DNA of 64,000 nucleotides. It comes from a virus (taxonomy: Duplodnaviria; Caudoviricetes). A model generated the notes under the pieces. The model did no database searches and was not told where the DNA came from. It saw only the letters and a program-made list of their open reading frames with translations. Position numbers and translations under genes: made by a program. Location: the IMG/VR virus record IMGVR_UViG_3300047160_036266, positions 256,001-320,000 of that record; one strand, written 5' to 3'. Of this stretch, positions 363 through 10,473 are shown piece by piece. Positions within the stretch are counted from its first letter, which is position 1; each line of letters opens with the position of its first letter.

Positions 363-2945
363 TCAATCTTCACCTATGCTGTAGTCGATGTCCTCTTCGT
401 CCTGCTCAGCCTCATAATCTTGAATCTCCAGATCAAATTTCCTAATGTCTTCGTCGTCCGGTTCCGCCAGCGGTGCCCCTTCGGCGGGATTCGGCCCTGG
501 TGCGCCACTCGGACCCGTTTCAGGCGGCGATTCCATCGCCACCCCACCGCCAGGCGGTGGAGCGCCGCCTCCTGGCGGCGGTGTAAGACCCATCGTGCCG
601 GGTCCACCCGGCCCAGGTGACGGTCCCAGCATCGGACTTGGGCCTCCCGGTTCCGTGCCCATTTCCTGGCCGGGCTGGGGAGTCTGCCCCGGTACGCCCA
701 CACCCAGCAGTTGTGGGTTCTGAGCCAAGACCTGCAACTTCAGGTCTTCGAGTTTCTGTATCTTCAGCCGGGCAAGCATTTCTTCGGCCTCTTCCGTGCT
801 ATATTTCATCCACTTCGTCTGGATGTCCCAATCCGCCATTAGCTGAGAGGATTTCAGGCTGCTCGCGTTGTTTATACGGTTCGTCGTGACTTCCGCCCGG
901 CTGAGTTCCCGCCAATCGCTCGGCGGGGTCATCTTTATGCGTAGGTCGTCGTATGACTCTTCGGGGAACCCCCGTAGTTGCAGGTGACGGTCGGCCATCT
1001 CCCACAAACCATCTTCCATGTGCGACTGCAACCGCTCGATCATGCGGGCGAACTTGATGTCCTGCGCACTGAGCGTGATGCGAGTTGCGTTGGGGTCTTC
1101 GTTATTGAAGTAATTCTTGGGAAAATTCAGGGCGGCGAACAACTTATTTCTGAAATAAACGGCGTCATCAATCTCACCAAGGTTCTGCGCCCCCGGCAAC
1201 GTGTCGATCTTGGTGTTAGAGTTGGGCCTGATCGGCAACCAATAGTCCTCATCCGCCGCCGGCGCGTGCCAGCGTTCTTCGACTATGGAGGAGGCACCGA
1301 ACTGGCTGCCCCGGCTGCTGGCTATCTTCTTCTTGCGGAACTGGTCCTTCATCCGCTCGATAAATGCCTCTGCCTTGAAGGGCGGCAACTGGCCGACATC
1401 AATATAGAACACCCGACGCTCCGGCGCACGGGTCAACCGATACACCACCATCGCGTCTTCCATCAACCGCAACTGGTGAGCCGGTCCACGGGCCGCTTCA
1501 ACCAGAGACACCCCGTAGGGGTAGAAGGTCTTGCGATCATCCCCGATGCGGATGTGGACAATCTGCTCTGGGGCAAACCGTATGGCGGTTGCCTGCATGA
1601 TTTCGGAGTCGGTCGCCTGGACCACCGGGGCGCGAATGAGGCTTTGGTAGTCGGGGCCTTCCTTGCTTTGCTGGAACTCCACCACCTTGCCCTTGGTCGT
1701 CTCGATGCGGTATATTGACTCTGGCGGCAGGCGGACTATTTTCATCACACCGTCCTTGGGCTGGTCCGGGTTGATGACTATTTCGTAGAACAAGTCGCCA
1801 AAGATGCACAGGTTCTTGAAGTCGCTCCAGGTACGGCGGTCCATGTTCAGCATCAGGCGGTGGAAAAATAGGAACTCAAGCTCCTCCTTGACATCCCGGT
1901 TCTTGCATTCGATTTTGAAGACGTGGTTATTCTCGTCCTTCTGGCAGTTGTGGAATATCACGGATTTTGAGCAAAAGTTCTGGTGGCCCTCTACGGACAA
2001 GTCGTATACGTCCATTGTCTGGTATTCTTGAATACCAATGACCCGGCGGCGGTCCTCCTTCTTCGCCAAATGCCGTATTTCTTTAAGGGAGAAACCTTCC
2101 TTTTGCAGACATAACTTGATGGTATTCCAGTCGTGGGGGACCGTCCGCTTGATGTCATTCATCGCCATGCCGGCGCTGGCAGCCCGGATGATCTTGTTCA
2201 ACCTTTCGTATCGTGCCTCCGGGTGGCCGCACCGCCATTGCTCCACGAACTGCCGCTCGTGCATCCAGCCCTGTGTGTGCGTGAAGATGCGTGGGAACTG
2301 GCTGGTCTTGAGCTTCGTGAAGTTTTGGTTGGCCTTGACCCGGTAGAAGGGCATCAACTCGTCACCAAACTTGAGGCCCCCGGCCATCGTCCATTCGCCC
2401 GAACGCAACAATACTCGATGGTCCGGGGTGGCGATGAAATGATCGCCATTATCCAGCACCACCTTCACAGTTGGGGCGGTTTTGGTCTTGCGAGGAGCGA
2501 AACCCCAGCCCAGGGTGTAGTCGCCCTTGGCAAAGTCCCAGCAATACAGTAGAAACTTCTCGTCGGGCTTGTTCTTGGCCAGCCACTCGATGGTCGGGAA
2601 TCCGAAGGGGGTAGCGATCTCTGTGTCGCCCGCCACGCACGCCTCGTCGGCAAAGACCGTCATCGCCATCTCAATCTCGGCCACGTTGCGGAGACGTTCG
2701 TACTCCTTGTACCGGGACATGCGGTTGCTGACGGTAGAAAGGTCGATGAAGTCCTGTGTCTCCCGGTAACGCACGAGCCGCTGCTCATTGCCGCCCCAGA
2801 AGGAACCGTCCGGCCCCATGCTGGGAATGGCGTCGGGCTGCGAGATGCCAGCGCCGGTCAAGTCCCTTACGTCGATCTTCCTCGCCAGAGGGTCTTTCGC
2901 AAAGGCGTAGGTGAATAGCTTGAAATAGTCAGCCCATATAGGCAT
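363..2945 (-). CDS. Portal protein (T4 gp20-like) interrupted by an intein, with a Pro/Gly-rich and acidic C-terminal tail
   Basis: gp20-like motifs GDLFYEIVIN, YGVSLVEAAR, QLRLMEDAMVVYRLTRAPERRVFYIDVGQLP, EDYWLP and IDTLPGAQNLGEIDDAVYFRNKLFAAL; SD GGAGG upstream. Confidence 0.93.
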   Translation of the reverse strand: MPIWADYFKLFTYAFAKDPLARKIDVRDLTGAGISQPDAIPSMGPDGSFWGGNEQRLVRYRETQDFIDLSTVSNRMSRYKEYERLRNVAEIEMAMTVFADEACVAGDTEIATPFGFPTIEWLAKNKPDEKFLLYCWDFAKGDYTLGWGFAPRKTKTAPTVKVVLDNGDHFIATPDHRVLLRSGEWTMAGGLKFGDELMPFYRVKANQNFTKLKTSQFPRIFTHTQGWMHERQFVEQWRCGHPEARYERLNKIIRAASAGMAMNDIKRTVPHDWNTIKLCLQKEGFSLKEIRHLAKKEDRRRVIGIQEYQTMDVYDLSVEGHQNFCSKSVIFHNCQKDENNHVFKIECKNRDVKEELEFLFFHRLMLNMDRRTWSDFKNLCIFGDLFYEIVINPDQPKDGVMKIVRLPPESIYRIETTKGKVVEFQQSKEGPDYQSLIRAPVVQATDSEIMQATAIRFAPEQIVHIRIGDDRKTFYPYGVSLVEAARGPAHQLRLMEDAMVVYRLTRAPERRVFYIDVGQLPPFKAEAFIERMKDQFRKKKIASSRGSQFGASSIVEERWHAPAADEDYWLPIRPNSNTKIDTLPGAQNLGEIDDAVYFRNKLFAALNFPKNYFNNEDPNATRITLSAQDIKFARMIERLQSHMEDGLWEMADRHLQLRGFPEESYDDLRIKMTPPSDWRELSRAEVTTNRINNASSLKSSQLMADWDIQTKWMKYSTEEAEEMLARLKIQKLEDLKLQVLAQNPQLLGVGVPGQTPQPGQEMGTEPGGPSPMLGPSPGPGGPGTMGLTPPPGGGAPPPGGGVAMESPPETGPSGAPGPNPAEGAPLAEPDDEDIRKFDLEIQDYEAEQDEEDIDYSIGED
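1947..2639 (-). mobile_element. Intein (231 aa) in the portal protein
   Basis: Block A CVAGDTEIAT after ADEA; block B FIATPDHRVL; block F VYDLSVEGHQNF; block G HN followed by a +1 Cys (VIFHN|CQKD). Confidence 0.92.
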
Positions 2946-3021
2946 AAAACCTCCCCTTCTAATTAAGTACAGCTAGTTATTAAGCTTGCTGTTGTTTTTT
3001 GCGGGAGGAATATATAAAGCC

Positions 3022-4368
3022 ATGCACGGATTCAGGAATTGGATGGAAGCAGAGACGAGCGCCCTCGAAGACGAGATCATGTCCGCCGTCAATGATGAGG
3101 ATGTATCCCAGCCCTACTTCAACGCCCTGCTCCACCAGTGGGTGAAGCAAAGCAACCCCACACTGTCCGGGGTCAAGCTTCAGCGGGGCTACGCGCCGCC
3201 CTATAACACCACCTTCCTGAGCGGTCAGTACAGCCCCTCGCTGGCCGATATTTCCGGGCACCGCATCGAGGAATATGGATTCTCCGGCGTCGGCCTGATC
3301 GTCCAGCCTTTTACCGCCGATTATTTGCGCAGTGACACCCTCCAGAACTTCGACGGTATCGCCATTGACAATGGCATGTTCACCGAAGCAGGCCAGCGGA
3401 ATTTCACCTGGGATAAGTACGAGAAGATGGTGAAGGTCGCTCTGGCGCAAGAGAAGAGGGAGATACTACGCAAGTTCCATTTCTTCACCGTCCCGGACCA
3501 GCCGTTTGATTGGGCCAGGACTATGCAGAAGTTCCAGGCCAGTCGGCCTTATGTGGAACGCCTACGCAAGTACGGCGCACCCGTCGCCATCTGCATACAG
3601 AACGGAGCAACGGAGAAGACCGTGCCGTGGGACGACGTGGATGTAATCTTTATTGGCGGCGATGATAAGTGGAAGGTAGGGTCAGAGGCTCAGGCAATCG
3701 TGCAGGAGGCGCAAAAGAGAAAGAAGACCGTTCACATGGGCCGGGTCAATAACCTTAAACGTATGAACGTCGCCTCCGGTTGGGGTGTGGAGACAGCGGA
3801 CGGTACTTATATCATGCACGAGTTGGCCAAGTCCCTCCATGACATTGAAAGGAAGAACCCCATGAGGCCAGGCGAGTCGCCGCAGGATTATGCCAAGCGT
3901 CTCAAACGTATTCTTCATGGAGAGCATCAGCCCACCGACATGGACTCCAAGGAACGTCACCAGACGGAACCGGAGATCGTCGGCAACTTCGTGAACTATG
4001 TGCTGGACAACCAACAACGCAGTCATCTGGAACGCCGCTATGCCGAGATTGCCTCTCTGGTCAAGCAGATGGGCAAACGGCCTCTGAACAAGCGGACGTT
4101 GTGGGAATACGACCGCTTTATGCCCCAGGTGCCGGGGATGGAACATGATGAAGACGTGGTGGAGTTCGACCCGGAGGGGAACGTGCGCGTGGACGCCGCA
4201 GGTCGTCCGATAAGGAATGCCGAACTGTTCAGTGGACTAATGCTGCGCGTACCCTATCGGGAGATGCCGGAAGGTATCCCTTCCGACCCGAAGAACTACA
4301 AAGTCTACACCAATTACATCAATCGTTATATTGCGCGAATGCGCGACCTGGGCGTGATGCCTAAGTAA
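3022..4368 (+). CDS. TGT-fold (DpdA-like) base-exchange transglycosylase with N- and C-terminal extensions
   Basis: TGT-barrel motif order DNGMF, VPD, IQNG, FIGG, VHMGRVN, TADGT. Start reassigned to the ATG at 3022 (MHGFRNWMEAE); the track ORF starts at 2986. Confidence 0.7.
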   Translation: MHGFRNWMEAETSALEDEIMSAVNDEDVSQPYFNALLHQWVKQSNPTLSGVKLQRGYAPPYNTTFLSGQYSPSLADISGHRIEEYGFSGVGLIVQPFTADYLRSDTLQNFDGIAIDNGMFTEAGQRNFTWDKYEKMVKVALAQEKREILRKFHFFTVPDQPFDWARTMQKFQASRPYVERLRKYGAPVAICIQNGATEKTVPWDDVDVIFIGGDDKWKVGSEAQAIVQEAQKRKKTVHMGRVNNLKRMNVASGWGVETADGTYIMHELAKSLHDIERKNPMRPGESPQDYAKRLKRILHGEHQPTDMDSKERHQTEPEIVGNFVNYVLDNQQRSHLERRYAEIASLVKQMGKRPLNKRTLWEYDRFMPQVPGMEHDEDVVEFDPEGNVRVDAAGRPIRNAELFSGLMLRVPYREMPEGIPSDPKNYKVYTNYINRYIARMRDLGVMPK

Positions 4369-5551
4369 CGTCTTGCAATCCCAAGAGCTTGAGATATTTT
4401 CGGTACTTATTCAGGGCCTTGCCTCGTAGACCCCGGTAAAGACCCTGCTGCTGGTAGTGCCTGAAGGTGTCAATCCAGCGTTGGCGATATGCCTGGGCCT
4501 CCGGCGTGTCCTGGCCCCGGAACTGCTGGTCGAAGGGTAAGTCTCGGTAGCGATAAGTACCGCCCCGTTTCACCAGCGGATCGCCCTCTGGGGCGTAAGG
4601 CGCACTCACATTCAGATCGGAGGGCGTGAATAGCTCCCGGCGTTGCCCGGTGTAGGGATTGATATTGCCGTGAGGATCGAGGCTCATAAACACATCCTTC
4701 TTGACGGCGGGCCGTTTCTCCGATGCCTTGCGGTCGATGCTTAGGTTTATGATGTCACGGCCCTCTGGATCGGTATAGACAGGCATCTTGAGTTTTCCCC
4801 GCTCCAAGGGCTTGTATCGCCACATGGGATCGACACCTACCATAGCCTGGTGTCTCCAAACGTCTAGGTCTTTGAGCTTGCGTTTCTTCATGATTGCTTG
4901 CCACAATTCGGCCCAGAAGTCATAGTCCTTACGGCTGGGAGTCTCATTAGGCACCACCCGCTGAAGCTCCGCTAACGACAGGCCCTTGGTGAACCGGGCG
5001 GGCAATGTCTCGCCCTTCATGTCCATGTCTTGGAGGATTCGCTTCATGGCCCGGAGGATGTGACGGTCAAGAACCGCAGGCTGTCCTTTGTCCTGGTTCA
5101 AGTATATTTTGATGAAGTTGACGATTTTGCTGCTGACGTTAGGAATGCTATGCAGGTATTCTTCGATCTTATCCGGGGGCCAGGATTTCATGTCATCCAG
5201 ATCGACCTTGGAAACGTCAACGAAACTGCGGGCCAAACGATTGAACGTACCCAGGCCGGCACGGGCTATATTCCTGACGAGGGTGCCTTTGTCAATCATG
5301 GTCCGAATGCGATGGAATGGGGTGCCGCCTGCACCACCCATGCTCGGCTCCTCAAAGGAAAGAAAGTGCATGAGGCCACGAGCCTGTTGGTGGGAGGGCT
5401 TACCGGCGGACAGAATGGTGAAGAGGATGTAGAACTCGCCTTTGGCCTGGTCTTTGTAGTCGAGGCCAATCTGTGGGTCGTCCAGGTAATACGGATCGAC
5501 TACCTCCGGCCCAATGATTTCGTCCAGGCGCAGCCACTCTTTGAAGTTCAC
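4361..5551 (-). CDS. HhH-GPD-family DNA glycosylase-like protein (OGG/N-glycosylase type) with C-terminal extension
   Basis: HhH-like LHSIPNVSSKIVNFI with Lys, then AVLDRHILR (Asp motif typical of archaeal-type 8-oxoG glycosylases). GTG start. Confidence 0.65.
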   Translation of the reverse strand: MNFKEWLRLDEIIGPEVVDPYYLDDPQIGLDYKDQAKGEFYILFTILSAGKPSHQQARGLMHFLSFEEPSMGGAGGTPFHRIRTMIDKGTLVRNIARAGLGTFNRLARSFVDVSKVDLDDMKSWPPDKIEEYLHSIPNVSSKIVNFIKIYLNQDKGQPAVLDRHILRAMKRILQDMDMKGETLPARFTKGLSLAELQRVVPNETPSRKDYDFWAELWQAIMKKRKLKDLDVWRHQAMVGVDPMWRYKPLERGKLKMPVYTDPEGRDIINLSIDRKASEKRPAVKKDVFMSLDPHGNINPYTGQRRELFTPSDLNVSAPYAPEGDPLVKRGGTYRYRDLPFDQQFRGQDTPEAQAYRQRWIDTFRHYQQQGLYRGLRGKALNKYRKYLKLLGLQDVT

Positions 5552-5579
5552 GACCTATTTAGGGTTACTCTGATATATT

Positions 5580-6149
5580 GTGAAGAAAGTTTGCTTCCTG
5601 CTCACCCACCAATGCTCCGGTTCTGAGCCGCTGCTGGAAACCCTTGGGGCGAACCCACGCATCCAGGTTTACCGCACGGGCCGGACCTACCTTCATCCCT
5701 TGTCTCTCGAAGACCTGACGGGGATGCCCCACAAAACCCGCAACGCCGCCGCCGTCTGGTTGGACGAGATTCGCTACAACTATCAGTTCGGGAACAAATC
5801 GCTGTACCCTCTCGCCAGGTTCCTTTATATGGTTCGCCCGGCGGCACCCACGCTGACTTGTCTCGTGACGGGCGGCTACGAGCCTGACTTTGCAGCCCGC
5901 TATTATTGTTATCGGCTCAGGCGGCTGGCGGAAATGGCGAAACGTACCCCCGGCGCAATCCTTATCACGCCCGATAAGCCTGCCCTAGACTTGGTTGCAG
6001 AGTACCTGTCCTTGAAGCAACCCTTGCTATCGTTCCAGGCCCAGCCGGCGGTCGTGGCGTCCCTCGATTGGGAGTTGGTCCGGCACTGCGAGGAGCGTTA
6101 CGAATGGCATTTGTTTTTCATGAAGCAGTTCCTACGCTTCGAGAGGTAG
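5580..6149 (+). CDS. Sulfotransferase-fold protein, possibly degenerate
   Basis: N-terminal FLLTHQCSGSEPLLETLGANPRI resembles the 5'-PSB loop region; YMVRPAAPTL resembles the 3'-PB strand. Confidence 0.45.
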   Translation: MKKVCFLLTHQCSGSEPLLETLGANPRIQVYRTGRTYLHPLSLEDLTGMPHKTRNAAAVWLDEIRYNYQFGNKSLYPLARFLYMVRPAAPTLTCLVTGGYEPDFAARYYCYRLRRLAEMAKRTPGAILITPDKPALDLVAEYLSLKQPLLSFQAQPAVVASLDWELVRHCEERYEWHLFFMKQFLRFER

Positions 6150-6686
6150 GGTCGTCTTTTTCCCACTGCGGGATGAAAATACAATCCCGGCAACCTCGAA
6201 TTTCTTTCCCTCAAAATCCCTATTCCCCGCTAGATCGTCGGCTTTGCCACGCTTGACGTAGGCGATGGTGACGTGTGGCTTATAAACCGGATAGGAGTTG
6301 GTTACTTCAAGGTGGTCATTGAGCCGCTGGTGGAGGCGATGTAGTTCGGAGCTTCGCACGTCGATTTTGACCACATCGAATTTGGGGTTTGTCTTAAATA
6401 AGGTCACTCGCCCCAGCTTGCAGGTGAAGGGCTTCTGGGACCGCAGAAGCTCCTGCACCGGCTTGGGGTCATCCGTGTGGATGCCGTAGAGGACGGTGGT
6501 GTGAATTTCGTTCTCCCGACCAAAGCTGGGATCATCCGGGTCGGTGTACACAACCCCGTGGGTGATGCGCTGATGACCCCATTCAATAATCTGGTCCGAT
6601 AGGTCGTCCGGCAAATATATTTGCGTGGAGGAATAACTGTATACAACGTCGTGCATCTCGTTAGCCAAGAATTGCCGAAACGTCAT
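6132..6686 (-). CDS. 2H phosphoesterase (2'-5' RNA ligase superfamily), Acb1/T4 57B-like
   Basis: Two HxT motifs (EIHTTVLYG, YKPHVTIAY). Start reassigned to the ATG at 6686 (MTFRQFLANE) behind SD AAGGAG. Confidence 0.8.
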   Translation of the reverse strand: MTFRQFLANEMHDVVYSYSSTQIYLPDDLSDQIIEWGHQRITHGVVYTDPDDPSFGRENEIHTTVLYGIHTDDPKPVQELLRSQKPFTCKLGRVTLFKTNPKFDVVKIDVRSSELHRLHQRLNDHLEVTNSYPVYKPHVTIAYVKRGKADDLAGNRDFEGKKFEVAGIVFSSRSGKKTTLPLEA

Positions 6687-6999
6687 CGTCTCCTTCGGTT
6701 TGTTGTTTCTTGCGGCGTTCAGCAATCTCGTCTATCTTTCTTTTTTCTTCGGCAATCATGCTGTCGATGTAGTGTAAGGTTTCCTTCACGCCCATGCCAG
6801 GTACGGCCCCAACGCCCCAATGCTGTTGGTACTGTTCCTGCTCAGCCTGTTGCCTCTTTTCCCGCTTCTTCTCCACCTGCTCCACCTTGGTCAAGGCGGC
6901 GTTTAGGTGATACCGGGCTTCCGACAGGGTAAAATCCTGTGGGCACTCCCGGATAGCTTGTTGTAGCAAAGTCCTTAGTCGTTGGGTATTATTCTTCAT
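6661..6999 (-). CDS. Hypothetical helical protein
   Basis: 112-aa ORF overlapping both neighbours in an operon-like arrangement. Confidence 0.7.
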   Translation of the reverse strand: MKNNTQRLRTLLQQAIRECPQDFTLSEARYHLNAALTKVEQVEKKREKRQQAEQEQYQQHWGVGAVPGMGVKETLHYIDSMIAEEKRKIDEIAERRKKQQTEGDDDVSAILG

Positions 7000-7949
7000 C
7001 CCGCACCCTCTCCAATTAACTCAATGTATTTAATGGGTATCTCGTTGTTTCCTGCCGGCTCATATTCGCCCGGTTGCACCTGCACCAGATGCCTGGTGTC
7101 CACACGCACCTTCCAGGTATCATGAATGGATGGGAGCGGGGCACGTTCCGTCATCAGGCGGGGATAAATCTCGGCATTCCCCAGGACCGATAGTTGGCGG
7201 CGAGCGTCAGCGTATACGTCTCGCTCCTCGCAGGTAGCGTTGAAATATAGCGTCATCACCTTCCTGGCCGACACGGATCGGGGTTGTTGAATCTCCTTAA
7301 TCAACCCGAAAAAGTCCCTTTGCAGGCCATCGTCAACATAAAACGCCTCGCTGTTTTCATCGAGGGTCCATACTTCCAAACCGCCGGGGGCCAGCCCGCA
7401 GCCAAATTTGCCGCTGGCCGGCGGTCGGCTTACTTCCACGACCGCTTTCTCCACCGGATAGACCCATTCCCTTCCCTGGGGTTCTTTTGGCACGATCCCA
7501 ATAAGGGACTTAAAGCCCGGCAAGAATAGGCTGGCGGTTTCCAGAAGCTTTCCCAGCTTGTGCATATTCTTGCTGGTCTTGTGCATCAACAACCGGAGGG
7601 TTTCCTGCTCGTTGAGTTGGGGCTTTGCGCCGTAGAGACAGTATGCCTTGAACTGGAAGAGGGCTTCTGGCATCGGCCCTTGGTTCCATTCTTGGTAGGC
7701 GCTATATGCTGCCTGGATTTTGCGGGGGTTCATGCTGGACAGTGCCACCATGAACGGATTGGTCTGCGGATAGTGCTGATTCAACAAACACTGCTCAATG
7801 GCCACCTTCTCGGCCTCACTGCTTTCGATATAGTCCTCACGCCAGACCACATTTTTCAGGCGCTCGGTCAATGCTGCCTCATAGGCTTCAAGGCTAATGG
7901 CAATTTTGTTGGAACACTTGAAGTCAACATACTGCTGGAATTGGCTCAT
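6996..7949 (-). CDS. Hypothetical protein (317 aa)
   Basis: Start reassigned to the ATG at 7949 (MSQFQQYVDF), 1 nt after the terminase stop. The 5' part of the track ORF lies in another frame of the terminase. Confidence 0.75.
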   Translation of the reverse strand: MSQFQQYVDFKCSNKIAISLEAYEAALTERLKNVVWREDYIESSEAEKVAIEQCLLNQHYPQTNPFMVALSSMNPRKIQAAYSAYQEWNQGPMPEALFQFKAYCLYGAKPQLNEQETLRLLMHKTSKNMHKLGKLLETASLFLPGFKSLIGIVPKEPQGREWVYPVEKAVVEVSRPPASGKFGCGLAPGGLEVWTLDENSEAFYVDDGLQRDFFGLIKEIQQPRSVSARKVMTLYFNATCEERDVYADARRQLSVLGNAEIYPRLMTERAPLPSIHDTWKVRVDTRHLVQVQPGEYEPAGNNEIPIKYIELIGEGAG

Positions 7950-7950
7950 G

Positions 7951-9759
7951 TTACCACCCAAATTCTTTGAGTAATTTGTCGTACTTCCTTGAGTAGTTGA
8001 ACATGACGCCCGGCAAGATGTCATCCTTGTCCGGGGCCAGGAAATCGGTCGGTTCCTCGATAAAGTCCTGCGGTGCCCCTTCCTGCAACTCGCGCTTGAT
8101 CTCCTCGTATATTTCCGTCTTGAAGGTCGCCGTGATCTCCTTGGGAACCTCGGCACCCATCGGGATGTCACGCAGCAGGCCGTCGCGTACATAAAGCGCC
8201 ATGCACATGGCCATGATGGCGTCGTCGTGATGACCCTTCAGGGCCTCGGCCCGCTTGGTCTGGGGGTTGAAAATGAATGTTTGCAGTTCCCGGACGAAAC
8301 GGTTACTATTGATGCGCACCGTACTGTTGATGAGCCTGTGCTGCAATCGCTCCAGAAAGATTGGGCGGTTGGTCCGGTTGACCGTGATGCCCGGTTTCTC
8401 CTGTTTGCCCTTGGCCTCATAATGGATATTTTCGTAGAATAGGTCGTGCTGTAACTGACTGATGACAGCACCGCCAGGGGCCATATTCTCCACGATGATG
8501 GTCGCCGTGTTGTAGTACAACCCGACTTCGTTGAGGATTTGGGTGAAGATGTGCGGCGGCACGCTGTTGCTATAAAACTCGGCCACCTGTTCCAAGGTCG
8601 CCGTGTCAAGAACCTGGAAGCAAGAATTATCGCCCTTCTCGCCCATGCCTTCAGCCACGTCCACGCCGATCAGGTATTCGTGGCCGTCAATGGGTTCCTT
8701 CCATACCCACATGGCCCCTTTGTCAAATTCCAGGTCGTCGTTGACCAGTTCAAGATATTTGTCTATATTGGCCCACTTGGGGAACAGCTTGCGGATCGGA
8801 TAGTTGTCCCTGGTAGCTTTATCGAGAGCGTCGATGATCTTGGTGGGGAAGTAGTTGTCACCGGAGCCAAGGAACTCGCGCATGACCTCCTGCAACCAAC
8901 CGGCCTCGCCAAGCTGGGCCTTGTTCTTCTTGACCCACTCCGGGTCGTCGTATTGCGGGTTGTCCCAATAGTCCAACTCGATGACATGCCAGATTTTGTT
9001 CCGGTTCTCTTTGGTGTCGGTGAAAGTCTGGTGATACCAGTTGCCGTAACCGTTGACGGTGGAAACCACGGCGCACTGACCGCCGGTGCTAAGTACCGGC
9101 CACATAGCCTTCCAGTGGGTTTCCATGTCCGGGATGAATGCCGCCTCGTCAATGATGAGGAAGGTAACGGATTTACCACGAGCGGCTTCTGGGGAATAGA
9201 ACTTCATCGAGCCGCCGGTATCGGTGAACATCTTCAGATGGTCGTTCCACTTGCCATCGGTCTTGGGCTTCATCCAGATGGGTAAGTGTTCGATGGCCCG
9301 GTCCACGATCATGCCGATGTCTGTGGCTTCACGGTCGGTCTTGGACAGCAACATGACCTGGGTATCTAGCTTGAACATGCACCGCCACATGCCCCATAAC
9401 AGGGTGAGAGTGGTCAAACCACCCTGGCGGAACTTGCTGATGATATTGAAGTCGTGGCTTTCGTAGTCCTTGATAACCGTCCGCTGGTACTTGTACAAAA
9501 TGAAGGGGATCAAGCCCTGGACGGGGTGGAGAATCTTGAGGTACTTGTTGCAGAAATACGGGAAGCTCATCGAACACTTGATGATTTCCTTCTGCTGGCG
9601 GTGGGCGTCATACGCCTCGATCTGCTCCTCGGTTTCGTCGGGGTCGATGTCCAGTTCGTAGCGGTCGAAGTCATAATACTTCGAGTTATATTCTCCCTCG
9701 TAGTATTCCCTGGGGGTCTTATATTTCTTCCGCCACTTTGAAAAATTCTTGAGGTCCAT
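7951..9759 (-). CDS. terL: Terminase large subunit (T4 gp17-like)
   Basis: ILHPVQGLIPFILYKYQ; Walker A KFRQGGLTT; Walker B FLIIDEAAFI; nuclease YLIGVDVAEG and HDDAIMA. Start at the ATG at 9759 behind SD AAAGGA. Confidence 0.95.
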   Translation of the reverse strand: MDLKNFSKWRKKYKTPREYYEGEYNSKYYDFDRYELDIDPDETEEQIEAYDAHRQQKEIIKCSMSFPYFCNKYLKILHPVQGLIPFILYKYQRTVIKDYESHDFNIISKFRQGGLTTLTLLWGMWRCMFKLDTQVMLLSKTDREATDIGMIVDRAIEHLPIWMKPKTDGKWNDHLKMFTDTGGSMKFYSPEAARGKSVTFLIIDEAAFIPDMETHWKAMWPVLSTGGQCAVVSTVNGYGNWYHQTFTDTKENRNKIWHVIELDYWDNPQYDDPEWVKKNKAQLGEAGWLQEVMREFLGSGDNYFPTKIIDALDKATRDNYPIRKLFPKWANIDKYLELVNDDLEFDKGAMWVWKEPIDGHEYLIGVDVAEGMGEKGDNSCFQVLDTATLEQVAEFYSNSVPPHIFTQILNEVGLYYNTATIIVENMAPGGAVISQLQHDLFYENIHYEAKGKQEKPGITVNRTNRPIFLERLQHRLINSTVRINSNRFVRELQTFIFNPQTKRAEALKGHHDDAIMAMCMALYVRDGLLRDIPMGAEVPKEITATFKTEIYEEIKRELQEGAPQDFIEEPTDFLAPDKDDILPGVMFNYSRKYDKLLKEFGW

Positions 9760-9936
9760 AGTGTCCTTTCTAATTAAGTGAGATATTCTCAGGTAATATG
9801 TAGGGTGGGAAATATGAAATCTAGGTGGTGAAGGTTCCATGAAAAACGAACCTTTCCCACTCGCTTGTTGGCTACATAGGATGTAAAAGGAGGGCTTGCG
9901 ACGAAGTGACCGGATTACCACCAAGGGGAGTGAGTC

Positions 9937-10473
9937 ATGCCGACCGAGAACGAGCGAAAATATGTGTTGAGGCCCGACACTACCAAGTCTTCAATGACCA
10001 ACATCTGCACCAACCGGGTCTACAACATATGTCAGGGCTACCTGATTGCTACCAGGGGTATAACCGTCCGGGTCCGCAGTTTGTCTGACGCCCGGTGCCC
10101 CGACCAGTTCTATTTCACCCTGAAAGTCAGTACCAACGGACGTGTCGTTGAAATCGAGAACCCCATCGACCGGCGGGACTTCAATGACCTGTGGGACATC
10201 TGCCTGAACAAGCTCGAAAAGACGCGATATAAGCTGAACGGGAAATATAAGGGCTGGGAAATTGACTTTTTCCGGGACCATGACAACCAGACTTATTTCG
10301 TCATGGCCGAATGCGAAATGCCGGAAGGCCAGGTTCGGCCCGTGGAGGTTCCCCAACAAATAAAGGACGCGCTGCTTTACGAAGTGCCCTTGAACGACGT
10401 GCGCTTCTCCAGTAAGCTATTATCAGACGTTCGCTACGCGAAGCGGCTCTTGAACGAAATCAATGGAGGCTAA
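9937..10473 (+). CDS. CYTH-domain (triphosphate tunnel metalloenzyme / class IV adenylate cyclase-like) protein
   Basis: N-terminal ExExK motif ENERKY; QGY, VRVR, LEKTRY, WEIDFF and MAECE motifs. Confidence 0.85.
   Translation: MPTENERKYVLRPDTTKSSMTNICTNRVYNICQGYLIATRGITVRVRSLSDARCPDQFYFTLKVSTNGRVVEIENPIDRRDFNDLWDICLNKLEKTRYKLNGKYKGWEIDFFRDHDNQTYFVMAECEMPEGQVRPVEVPQQIKDALLYEVPLNDVRFSSKLLSDVRYAKRLLNEINGG

Follow-up and report, generated by a model that had tools for sequence, protein, structure and literature searches.

A glycosylase-like protein with a capsid-targeting-like leader, encoded in the head-gene region of a huge T4-like phage, is a candidate cargo protein

The stretch of DNA analyzed here, called the window in the following, comprises 64,000 nucleotides and corresponds to positions 256001–320000 of a 343-kb IMG/VR virus record (G000:C1; estimated completeness 69%). 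It stems from a huge, uncultured T4-like soil phage. Between its T4-type portal gene and its T4-type large terminase gene lie two convergent genes, one on the minus strand (4361–5551) for a glycosylase-like protein of 396 amino acids (aa), designated P0001, and one on the plus strand (3022–4368) for a barrel protein of 448 aa, designated P0002. The GTG at 5551 is the sole possible start of P0001, an in-frame TAG being situated two codons upstream and conserved residues beginning by position 14. The plus-strand open reading frame (ORF) is listed as 2986–4368; its likeliest start is the ATG at 3022, behind a GGAGG, which results in 448 aa arranged as an N-terminal leader, a helical N-domain, a TIM barrel resembling tRNA-guanine transglycosylase (TGT) and DpdA (residues ∼51–342), and a C-terminal extension. 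Because P0002 ends with the TAA at 4366–4368 and P0001 with the TAG at 4361–4363 on the minus strand, the two frames overlap by 8 nt (4361–4368), and the convergent, overlapping arrangement described in the initial annotation of the window was thus confirmed by the ORF listing and by the stop codons read at 4330–4400.

When P0001 alone was used as the query, no match was obtained in Pfam (hmmscan against Pfam-A, E ≤ 10), PADLOC, or the PDB sequences (phmmer), and NCBIfam returned just a nonsignificant nth match (E = 0.2). A DNA-level search of cultured phages found nothing, and no relative was found in viral contigs scanned with an alignment of the P0001 clade; the sole match of that clade in a metagenome scan was a near relative on a contig designated L084. 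In PHROGs, residues 35–170 correspond to phrog_11575, a family without assigned function. When 1.84 billion representatives were searched exhaustively with phmmer, 84 matches were obtained, ∼80 of them stand-alone proteins of ∼190–220 aa aligning to P0001 residues ∼20–235, and three of them (P0005, 52–54% identical; P0056; and P0057) close relatives or fragments. A 70-sequence alignment of the family (A3) was used as a profile and for an AlphaFold model. Among the PDB sequences, the profile matched the Ogg2 8-oxoguanine (8-oxoG) glycosylase/apurinic-apyrimidinic (AP) lyases, best of all 9o00 (E = 1.8e-18), followed by MjOgg (3fhf, 2.8e-12; 3knt, 5.8e-11), Tm1821 (3n0u, 8.9e-10), and 3fhg (2.2e-9), with endonuclease III and OGG1 ranking far below. 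The AlphaFold2 model based on A3 (predicted local distance difference test [pLDDT] 81; predicted template modeling score 0.84) has the two-domain, all-helical HhH-GPD fold, in which the active site lies between the two lobes. All its top Foldseek matches were HhH-GPD glycosylases, at weak E-values of ∼1e-2; VIA-align gave Z-scores of 10.4–11.6 over residues 3–240, and 11.1 for the MjOgg–DNA structure 3knt (root mean square deviation 3.0; 175 of 205 residues aligned). The HhH-GPD domain thus delimited comprises residues ∼20–240 (4832–5494, minus strand). The same genome encodes a paralogue of 213 aa (G000:C1:70814–71455) which aligns to P0001 residues 12–233 (E = 4e-11), passes the Pfam cut-off for Ogg-HhH (E = 3e-7; 30.6 versus 27 bits), and matches the N-glycosylase/DNA lyase model NF002305 (3.3e-12), albeit far under the NCBIfam equivalog cut-off (46 versus 183 bits). 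As family profile, fold model, and canonical paralogue agree, the HhH-GPD assignment already proposed for P0001 is sound, and the Ogg2 enzymes are its nearest characterized kin. The paralogue gene, outside the window, lies two genes from an N6/N4 DNA methyltransferase gene (PF01555, 1.1e-45) in the same orientation (G000:C1:69374–71455).

In A3, 18 columns are conserved in ≥90% of the family, and P0001 conforms to 17 of them. Among the 17 are the two residues for which retention had been claimed, and the claim held: the column of Lys142 (codon 5126–5128) is lysine, and that of Asp162 (codon 5066–5068) aspartate, in 69 of 70 family members each (IPNVSSK...PAVLDRHILR), and His164 is retained as well. 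Lys142 occupies the place of the nucleophilic lysine with which the second HhH helix begins (predicted helices 126–135 and 141–151, separated by a loop), Asp162 that of the catalytic aspartate after a Gly/Pro-rich loop (KGQPAVLD162RH), and both align with the positions altered in variant entries of 9o00 (an Asn replaces the Asp in 9o01, and a Ser the Lys in 9o02). With the solved Ogg2 enzymes (MjOgg 3fhf/3knt, Tm1821 3n0u, SsoOgg 3fhg, and 9o00), P0001 has in common the two-lobed fold lacking the A-domain of OGG1, the catalytic lysine in the HhH followed 20 residues later by the aspartate (LDRHILR versus IDRHILR in 9o00), and the AGK, PF, and DLxxW motifs; identity, however, is only ∼17–19% in structural alignment. 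It also differs from them in the hairpin, in the C-terminus, and in a capsid-targeting-like leader. In the superfamily, the hairpin is of the L-P-G-[IV]-G-x-K type. Throughout the P0001 clade, the family hairpin GIGxKT is changed to (N/S)(V/I)S(S/D)KI and preceded by a four-residue insertion, so that P0001 reads IPNVSSK where the family has GIGxK, the glycines at 138 and 140 being exchanged for N and S. As to the C-terminus, Ogg2 tells 8-oxoG from guanine by means of its strictly conserved C-terminal lysine, the carboxylate of which senses N7-H, and truncation of this lysine abolishes 8-oxoG excision while AP-lyase activity is kept (PMC3397491). P0001 runs for 165 residues beyond the conserved Trp232 (WRHQAMVGVDP...), and because a terminal-lysine sensor cannot exist in the longer chain, P0001 was not filed as an Ogg2 8-oxoG glycosylase.

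The C-terminal extension of P0001 (residues 241–396; 4364–4831, minus strand) is predicted to be β-rich, followed by two basic helices. These ∼160 residues were modeled with a pLDDT of 50–85, and relatives of them were found in P0004, P0005, and P0057 only; an ESM Atlas search with the domain gave a score of 0.76, which is noise and provided no lead. A module shared between the C-terminal extensions of P0001 and P0002 was considered, prompted by a BLASTP match (E = 0.14) with collinear DP[EH]GN...ELF and Y..Y...LG stretches, and rejected (hhalign E = 0.07, probability 0.8%). The stand-alone family phrog_11575, which includes hypothetical proteins of Caulobacter phiCbK-like phages and of Tunturiibacter phage Tunturi_5 besides the paralogue G000:C1:70814–71455, shares with P0001 the domain (24–37% identity) and the conserved residues; in contrast to P0001, its members are ∼190–220 aa long, start with MIDP, keep GIGxK, possess neither leader nor C-terminal domain, and are encoded among replication/repair or methylase genes. 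P0001 most likely acts like a bifunctional HhH-GPD glycosylase/lyase with a base specificity unlike that of Ogg2. Because the Ogg2 sensor has been lost and a private C-terminal domain of 160 aa gained, its substrate is probably something other than classical 8-oxoG.

Both proteins begin with a short leader that resembles the capsid targeting sequence (CTS) of phage T4. That of P0001 is encoded by codons 1–11 (5519–5551, minus strand; V/M-NFKEWLRLDE) and ends in L-D-E; that of P0002, also of 11 residues, reads MHGFRNWMEAE. The CTS of T4 reads MKTYQEFIAE (PMC8442874); targeting is governed by its residues 4 and 7, and gp21 processing by residues 8 and 10, the latter a Glu (PMC9026906). When the pattern [FY][KRQENST].[WF][LMIF].{1,3}[EQ] was searched for in a greedy set of 414 ORFs covering the whole record, it was found directly after the start codon of 10 genes, where ∼0.3 would be expected by chance, and 12 times in the interior of the proteins (106,750 residues), which corresponds to an N-terminal enrichment of ∼30-fold. 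The CTS-like N-termini ascribed to the two genes by the initial annotation are thus borne out on a genomic scale. One gene of this genome even starts with MKTFRQWLQE, a near copy of the T4 CTS, and P0002 is in T4 register (F4, W7, and M8, with E9 and E11 in addition). As in T4, where IPI–III and Alt carry the CTS and have it removed by gp21, the leader combines aromatic residues three positions apart with a following hydrophobic residue and Glu, occurs on many unrelated proteins, and is accompanied in the same genome by a gp21-type prohead protease (Peptidase_S77, PF03420; G000:C1:251315–251725, E = 1.9e-26, ∼4 kb before the window), a T4-type portal (Portal_T4), and a T4-type large terminase. 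The predicted cargo differs: a glycosylase fold, a TGT-like barrel, a 2H phosphoesterase, a radical S-adenosylmethionine (SAM) protein, and a helix-turn-helix protein instead of the small basic proteins or the ADP-ribosyltransferase of T4.

In P0001, the leader is a clean add-on, as Met1 of the untagged paralogue falls on residue 12 in the alignment. Among the 80-odd HhH family members, it is confined to the P0001 clade (P0004, VKFKEWL; P0005, MEIRFKDWLE; P0056, MELNFAEWLVIEE), and the others start with MIDP and are untagged. In the barrel family, full-length orthologues (∼430–480 aa) are tagged, starting with MNGFQNWFESQ, LNFRRWFEDADE, or MPTSFRTWFETEE, and homologues of ∼200–290 aa are untagged. 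Near P0001 and P0002, an Acb1/2H-phosphoesterase-like gene (6132–6725, minus strand; 6132–6686 for the tagged protein) encodes a protein with a leader of the same type (MTFRQFLANE). Further tagged proteins of the genome are the radical SAM protein, a helix-turn-helix protein, and several of no assigned function; the tagged proteins have no C-terminal motif in common. The radical SAM protein (549 aa; PF04055, 2.8e-13; G000:C1:122708–124357, minus strand; leader MRFRRFLESIE) belongs to an oxygen-sensitive enzyme class for which a role as capsid cargo would be unexpected. An ORF of 83 aa (G000:C1:136128–136379, minus strand) starts with MEFKEWLRLNE, and because this is nearly identical to VNFKEWLRLDE of P0001, copying of the leader between genes is suggested.

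For P0002, AlphaFold2 predicted (pLDDT 94) a TIM barrel at residues ∼51–342 with helical N- and C-terminal additions. The top-ranking Foldseek match, a weak one (E ∼1e-4; TM 0.3), was bacterial TGT, and the top ten of an exhaustive VIA search contained archaeosine TGT (Z = 12.8), bacterial TGT (12.7), Cap10 (12.4), QTRT2 (11.9), and DpdA (7ui4; 10.9), tied with class II aldolases (13.3). No TGT match was found in Pfam, and the barrel-family profile produced chance matches only when run against the PDB. Compared by hhalign with a profile of eight phage DpdAs, 9g and CAjan included, the barrel family showed weak similarity (local E = 6.6e-4, probability 27%; global E = 9e-6, 63%) along six collinear motifs (barrel/DpdA: IDNGxF/LDSGAF, PDxPFD/LDxIGD, QNGA/FHxGE, IFIGG/ITIGG, VHMGRVN/VHGFGIT, and DSADGT/CDSSSW). 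TGT and DpdA have three invariant active-site aspartates (PMC10164549); in the barrel family, D116, D159, and D260 are invariant and sit in motifs collinear with those of phage DpdA. The first acidic residue of GCDSADGT in P0002 was rejected as the TGT nucleophile, as its column is variable and only the Asp of ADGT is invariant. P0002, with a single cysteine, lacks the structural zinc site of bacterial DpdA (CxCx2Cx22H; PMC10164549); the eight phage DpdAs compared have two to four cysteines each, and the site thus may not define phage DpdAs.

From phage DpdA (9g, CAjan, and Sonali gp87), with which it shares the TIM barrel, the six motifs, and the three Asp positions, P0002 is distinguished by the missing Pfam match and the weak profile similarity, by the CTS-like leader, by large extensions at both termini, and by its genomic background: none of the preQ0 genes QueC, QueD, QueE, and FolE was found in the 343-kb record (∼69% complete), and such genes were near barrel relatives in 3 of 80 viral loci. 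Short barrel homologues in actinophage records are annotated as “DpdA-like tRNA-guanine transglycosylase.” Of the description of the partner as DpdA-like, the TIM barrel and the place of TGT and DpdA among the tied best structural matches stand, and its profile resembles those of phage DpdAs only weakly; the term “DpdA-like” is reasonable yet unproven, and we consider it probably correct. Arthrobacter phage Sonali (L087, MK411746.1, 51053–57466) encodes a short barrel-family “DpdA-like” protein (gp81) and, ∼2.4 kb downstream, a canonical DpdA (gp87) with QueC, QueD, QueE, and FolE; because Sonali encodes both, the two types of barrel do not simply duplicate a single function.

The initial annotation had further proposed that the two genes form a two-part module for base removal and replacement, and had suggested examining whether the two families co-occur. 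To this end, the best 80 of 268 viral-contig relatives of the barrel family were kept as loci, with flanks of up to 10 kb on each side. In none of the 80 was an HhH-family gene found beside the barrel gene, neither by tblastn with P0001 nor by hmmsearch with the A3 profile. Two huge-phage records with full-length, tagged P0002 orthologues, L004 (188 kb; 57% identity) and L005 (55 kb; 42%), contain no glycosylase anywhere; in a third, L003 (61%), the contig ends directly after the barrel gene, and a stand-alone gene at a distance of 175 kb is its sole HhH gene. In all three, the barrel gene adjoins neither portal nor terminase. Apart from this phage, the convergent arrangement of the two genes was seen in L084 alone, a metagenome contig which, because it is syntenic and 83% identical at the DNA level, is not independent evidence. 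In L004, the P0002 orthologue is abutted on its upstream side, at 10001, by a gene for a ParB-like protein (9321–10004, plus strand; PHROGs, 1e-6) with the internal start MNFMLWIEGVE, that is, a tagged one; this neighborhood recalls the ParB-like genes beside phage DpdAs (DpdA-DpdB/ParB pairs). No homologue of this ParB-like protein was found in the 343-kb record.

A module in which the glycosylase removes a base and the DpdA-like enzyme installs the replacement, or in which both act jointly on a guanine-type substrate, would be attractive insofar as both folds act on purine N-glycosidic bonds in nucleic acids, the genes converge, overlap by 8 nt, and share a leader type, and the pair is kept in L084. 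However, besides the lack of the pair in the 80 loci and in L004 and L005, TGT and DpdA perform base exchange by themselves, with an Asp forming the covalent intermediate, and require no glycosylase (PMC10164549), the record revealed no preQ0 pathway, and the C-terminal extensions of the two proteins are unrelated. We therefore regard the module as distinctly unlikely, and the pairing should not be propagated as a functional unit. Favored instead is that P0001 and P0002 are independently recruited cargo genes which stand side by side in a variable cargo cluster, much like the polymorphic internal-protein loci of T-even phages (PMC3012670).

Taken together, the reading we prefer, with moderate confidence, is that P0001 serves this huge T4-like phage as cargo, as an internal or ejection protein: a diverged HhH-GPD glycosylase/AP-lyase that is loaded into the capsid and injected. 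According to this proposal, the 11-residue leader would direct P0001 into the prohead core, the gp21-type protease would cut it off after Glu11, and the mature protein would enter the host together with the injected DNA, where, in the first moments of infection, it would most likely flip out and excise a base and/or cleave abasic sites; the latter activities are proposed because the Lys/Asp dyad of bifunctional glycosylase/AP-lyases is retained. The adjacency of P0001 and P0002, which like the nearby Acb1-like phosphoesterase carry the same leader type, is then best read as a clustering of cargo genes amid the head genes and not as an obligatory glycosylase–transglycosylase pair. Several observations weigh against this proposal. 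Packaging, cleavage, and injection are inferred from a motif of 10 residues, and in P0001, translated from a GTG start, this motif is one residue off the T4 register (F3, W6, L7, and L-D-E11). Both hairpin glycines are replaced clade-wide (NVS for GIG), which may have changed or abolished DNA binding or catalysis. The pair may yet be conserved at an intermediate distance, such as that of the 52% homologue P0005. Finally, the homology of P0001 to glycosylases depends on a family profile and a model of pLDDT 81, the single-sequence searches of Pfam and the PDB being empty.

In a rival reading, P0001 is an internal head protein that binds DNA without catalysis, its HhH scaffold being reused to coat, organize, or escort the packaged or ejected genome in the manner of the basic internal proteins of T4. 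The loss of the hairpin glycines, a net basic composition (64 K+R versus 51 D+E), and the predicted basic helical C-terminal tail would suit such a role. However, Lys142, Asp162, His164, and 14 other family-conserved residues are kept across homologues that are 52–87% identical, which argues for selection on the active site and makes the inert protein improbable. P0001 could also be an ordinary cytoplasmic repair glycosylase for oxidized purines in phage DNA, the N-terminal motif being no functional targeting signal. The match of the family profile to Ogg2 8-oxoG glycosylases and the position of untagged family members in cultured phages, among helicase, ligase, and rII replication/repair genes, speak in favor of this possibility; but the genome already has a canonical, untagged paralogue, the lysine sensor strictly conserved in Ogg2 (PMC3397491) is absent from P0001, the tag is strongly enriched at N-termini and clade-confined within the family, and the gene lies between portal and terminase. 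We consider ordinary repair unlikely.

Very improbable is that P0001 is a thymidine hypermodification enzyme of the aGPT-pyrophosphorylase type, an alternative for which sequence support was lacking. These enzymes, too, have the HhH fold, as stated by the initial annotation; yet no Pfam-A family matched P0001 at E ≤ 10 (the whole library was scanned, the aGPT-Pplase models not being checked by name), profile and fold lead specifically to Ogg2/OGG1, and no ThyA-like hydroxymethylase was found in the record. A further suggestion, that P0001 may attack host DNA which is unmodified and spare the modified DNA of the phage, is unsupported: neither preQ0 genes nor a ThyA-type hydroxymethylase or a C5-methylase were found in the 343-kb record. 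The idea needs a protected phage genome, and the modification gene that was found is the N6/N4 DNA methyltransferase gene near the untagged paralogue.

The preferred interpretation of P0001 as injected cargo fits the sequences preceding the tagged genes. In most of them, TAAATA or TATAAA occurs 3–8 nt ahead of the start, usually without a Shine–Dalgarno sequence. Both genes studied here are included: a TAAATA resembling a T4 late promoter (5556–5561, minus strand) lies 4 nt upstream of the GTG of P0001, which has no Shine–Dalgarno sequence, and a TATAAA (3013–3018, plus strand) lies 3 nt upstream of the ATG at 3022, with the GGAGG further upstream. These motifs look like T4-late-type promoters yielding leaderless or near-leaderless mRNAs, and would be consistent with late expression, at the time of head assembly. 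Such motifs also occur upstream of G000:C1 positions 57932, 94743, 124357, 136379, 144553, and 206699, and ∼11 of the ∼32 start-adjacent motifs in the genome precede tag-like N-termini. As to the remaining genes around the pair, the portal gene (363–2945, minus strand; Portal_T4, 8.6e-76) contains an intein splicing domain (PF14890, 3.9e-13), the large terminase gene extends over 7951–9924, and two ORFs of the portal–terminase interval, 5580–6149 (plus strand, 189 aa) and 6996–8192 (minus strand, 398 aa), are without a match in Pfam or PHROGs.

A more far-reaching version of capsid delivery, to which we assign a low probability, is a base-editing kit shipped in the capsid, in which a glycosylase/AP-lyase of new specificity and a DpdA-like transglycosylase, both injected, would become active within seconds after the DNA has entered. 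If this were true, the host chromosome might be crippled or marked, or bases of the incoming genome might be rewritten from preQ0-type pools of the host, thereby evading modification-dependent or Dpd-type restriction, and the two proteins would be the first DNA base-excision or base-exchange enzymes delivered by a capsid.

As a candidate cargo protein, P0001 would combine two known kinds, the Ogg2-like fold and T4-type CTS cargo. To our knowledge, the proteins known to be injected by T4-type phages are small inhibitors and an ADP-ribosyltransferase. A glycosylase delivered together with the genome would extend the weapons, or the tools for self-repair, which phages deploy in the first minutes of infection to direct base excision. 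The case would show how ordinary enzymes are recruited as cargo of huge phages, with one family being present in two copies in the same genome: an untagged, canonical one, and one to which a leader has been added, whose hairpin has been remodeled, and which has a new C-terminal domain.

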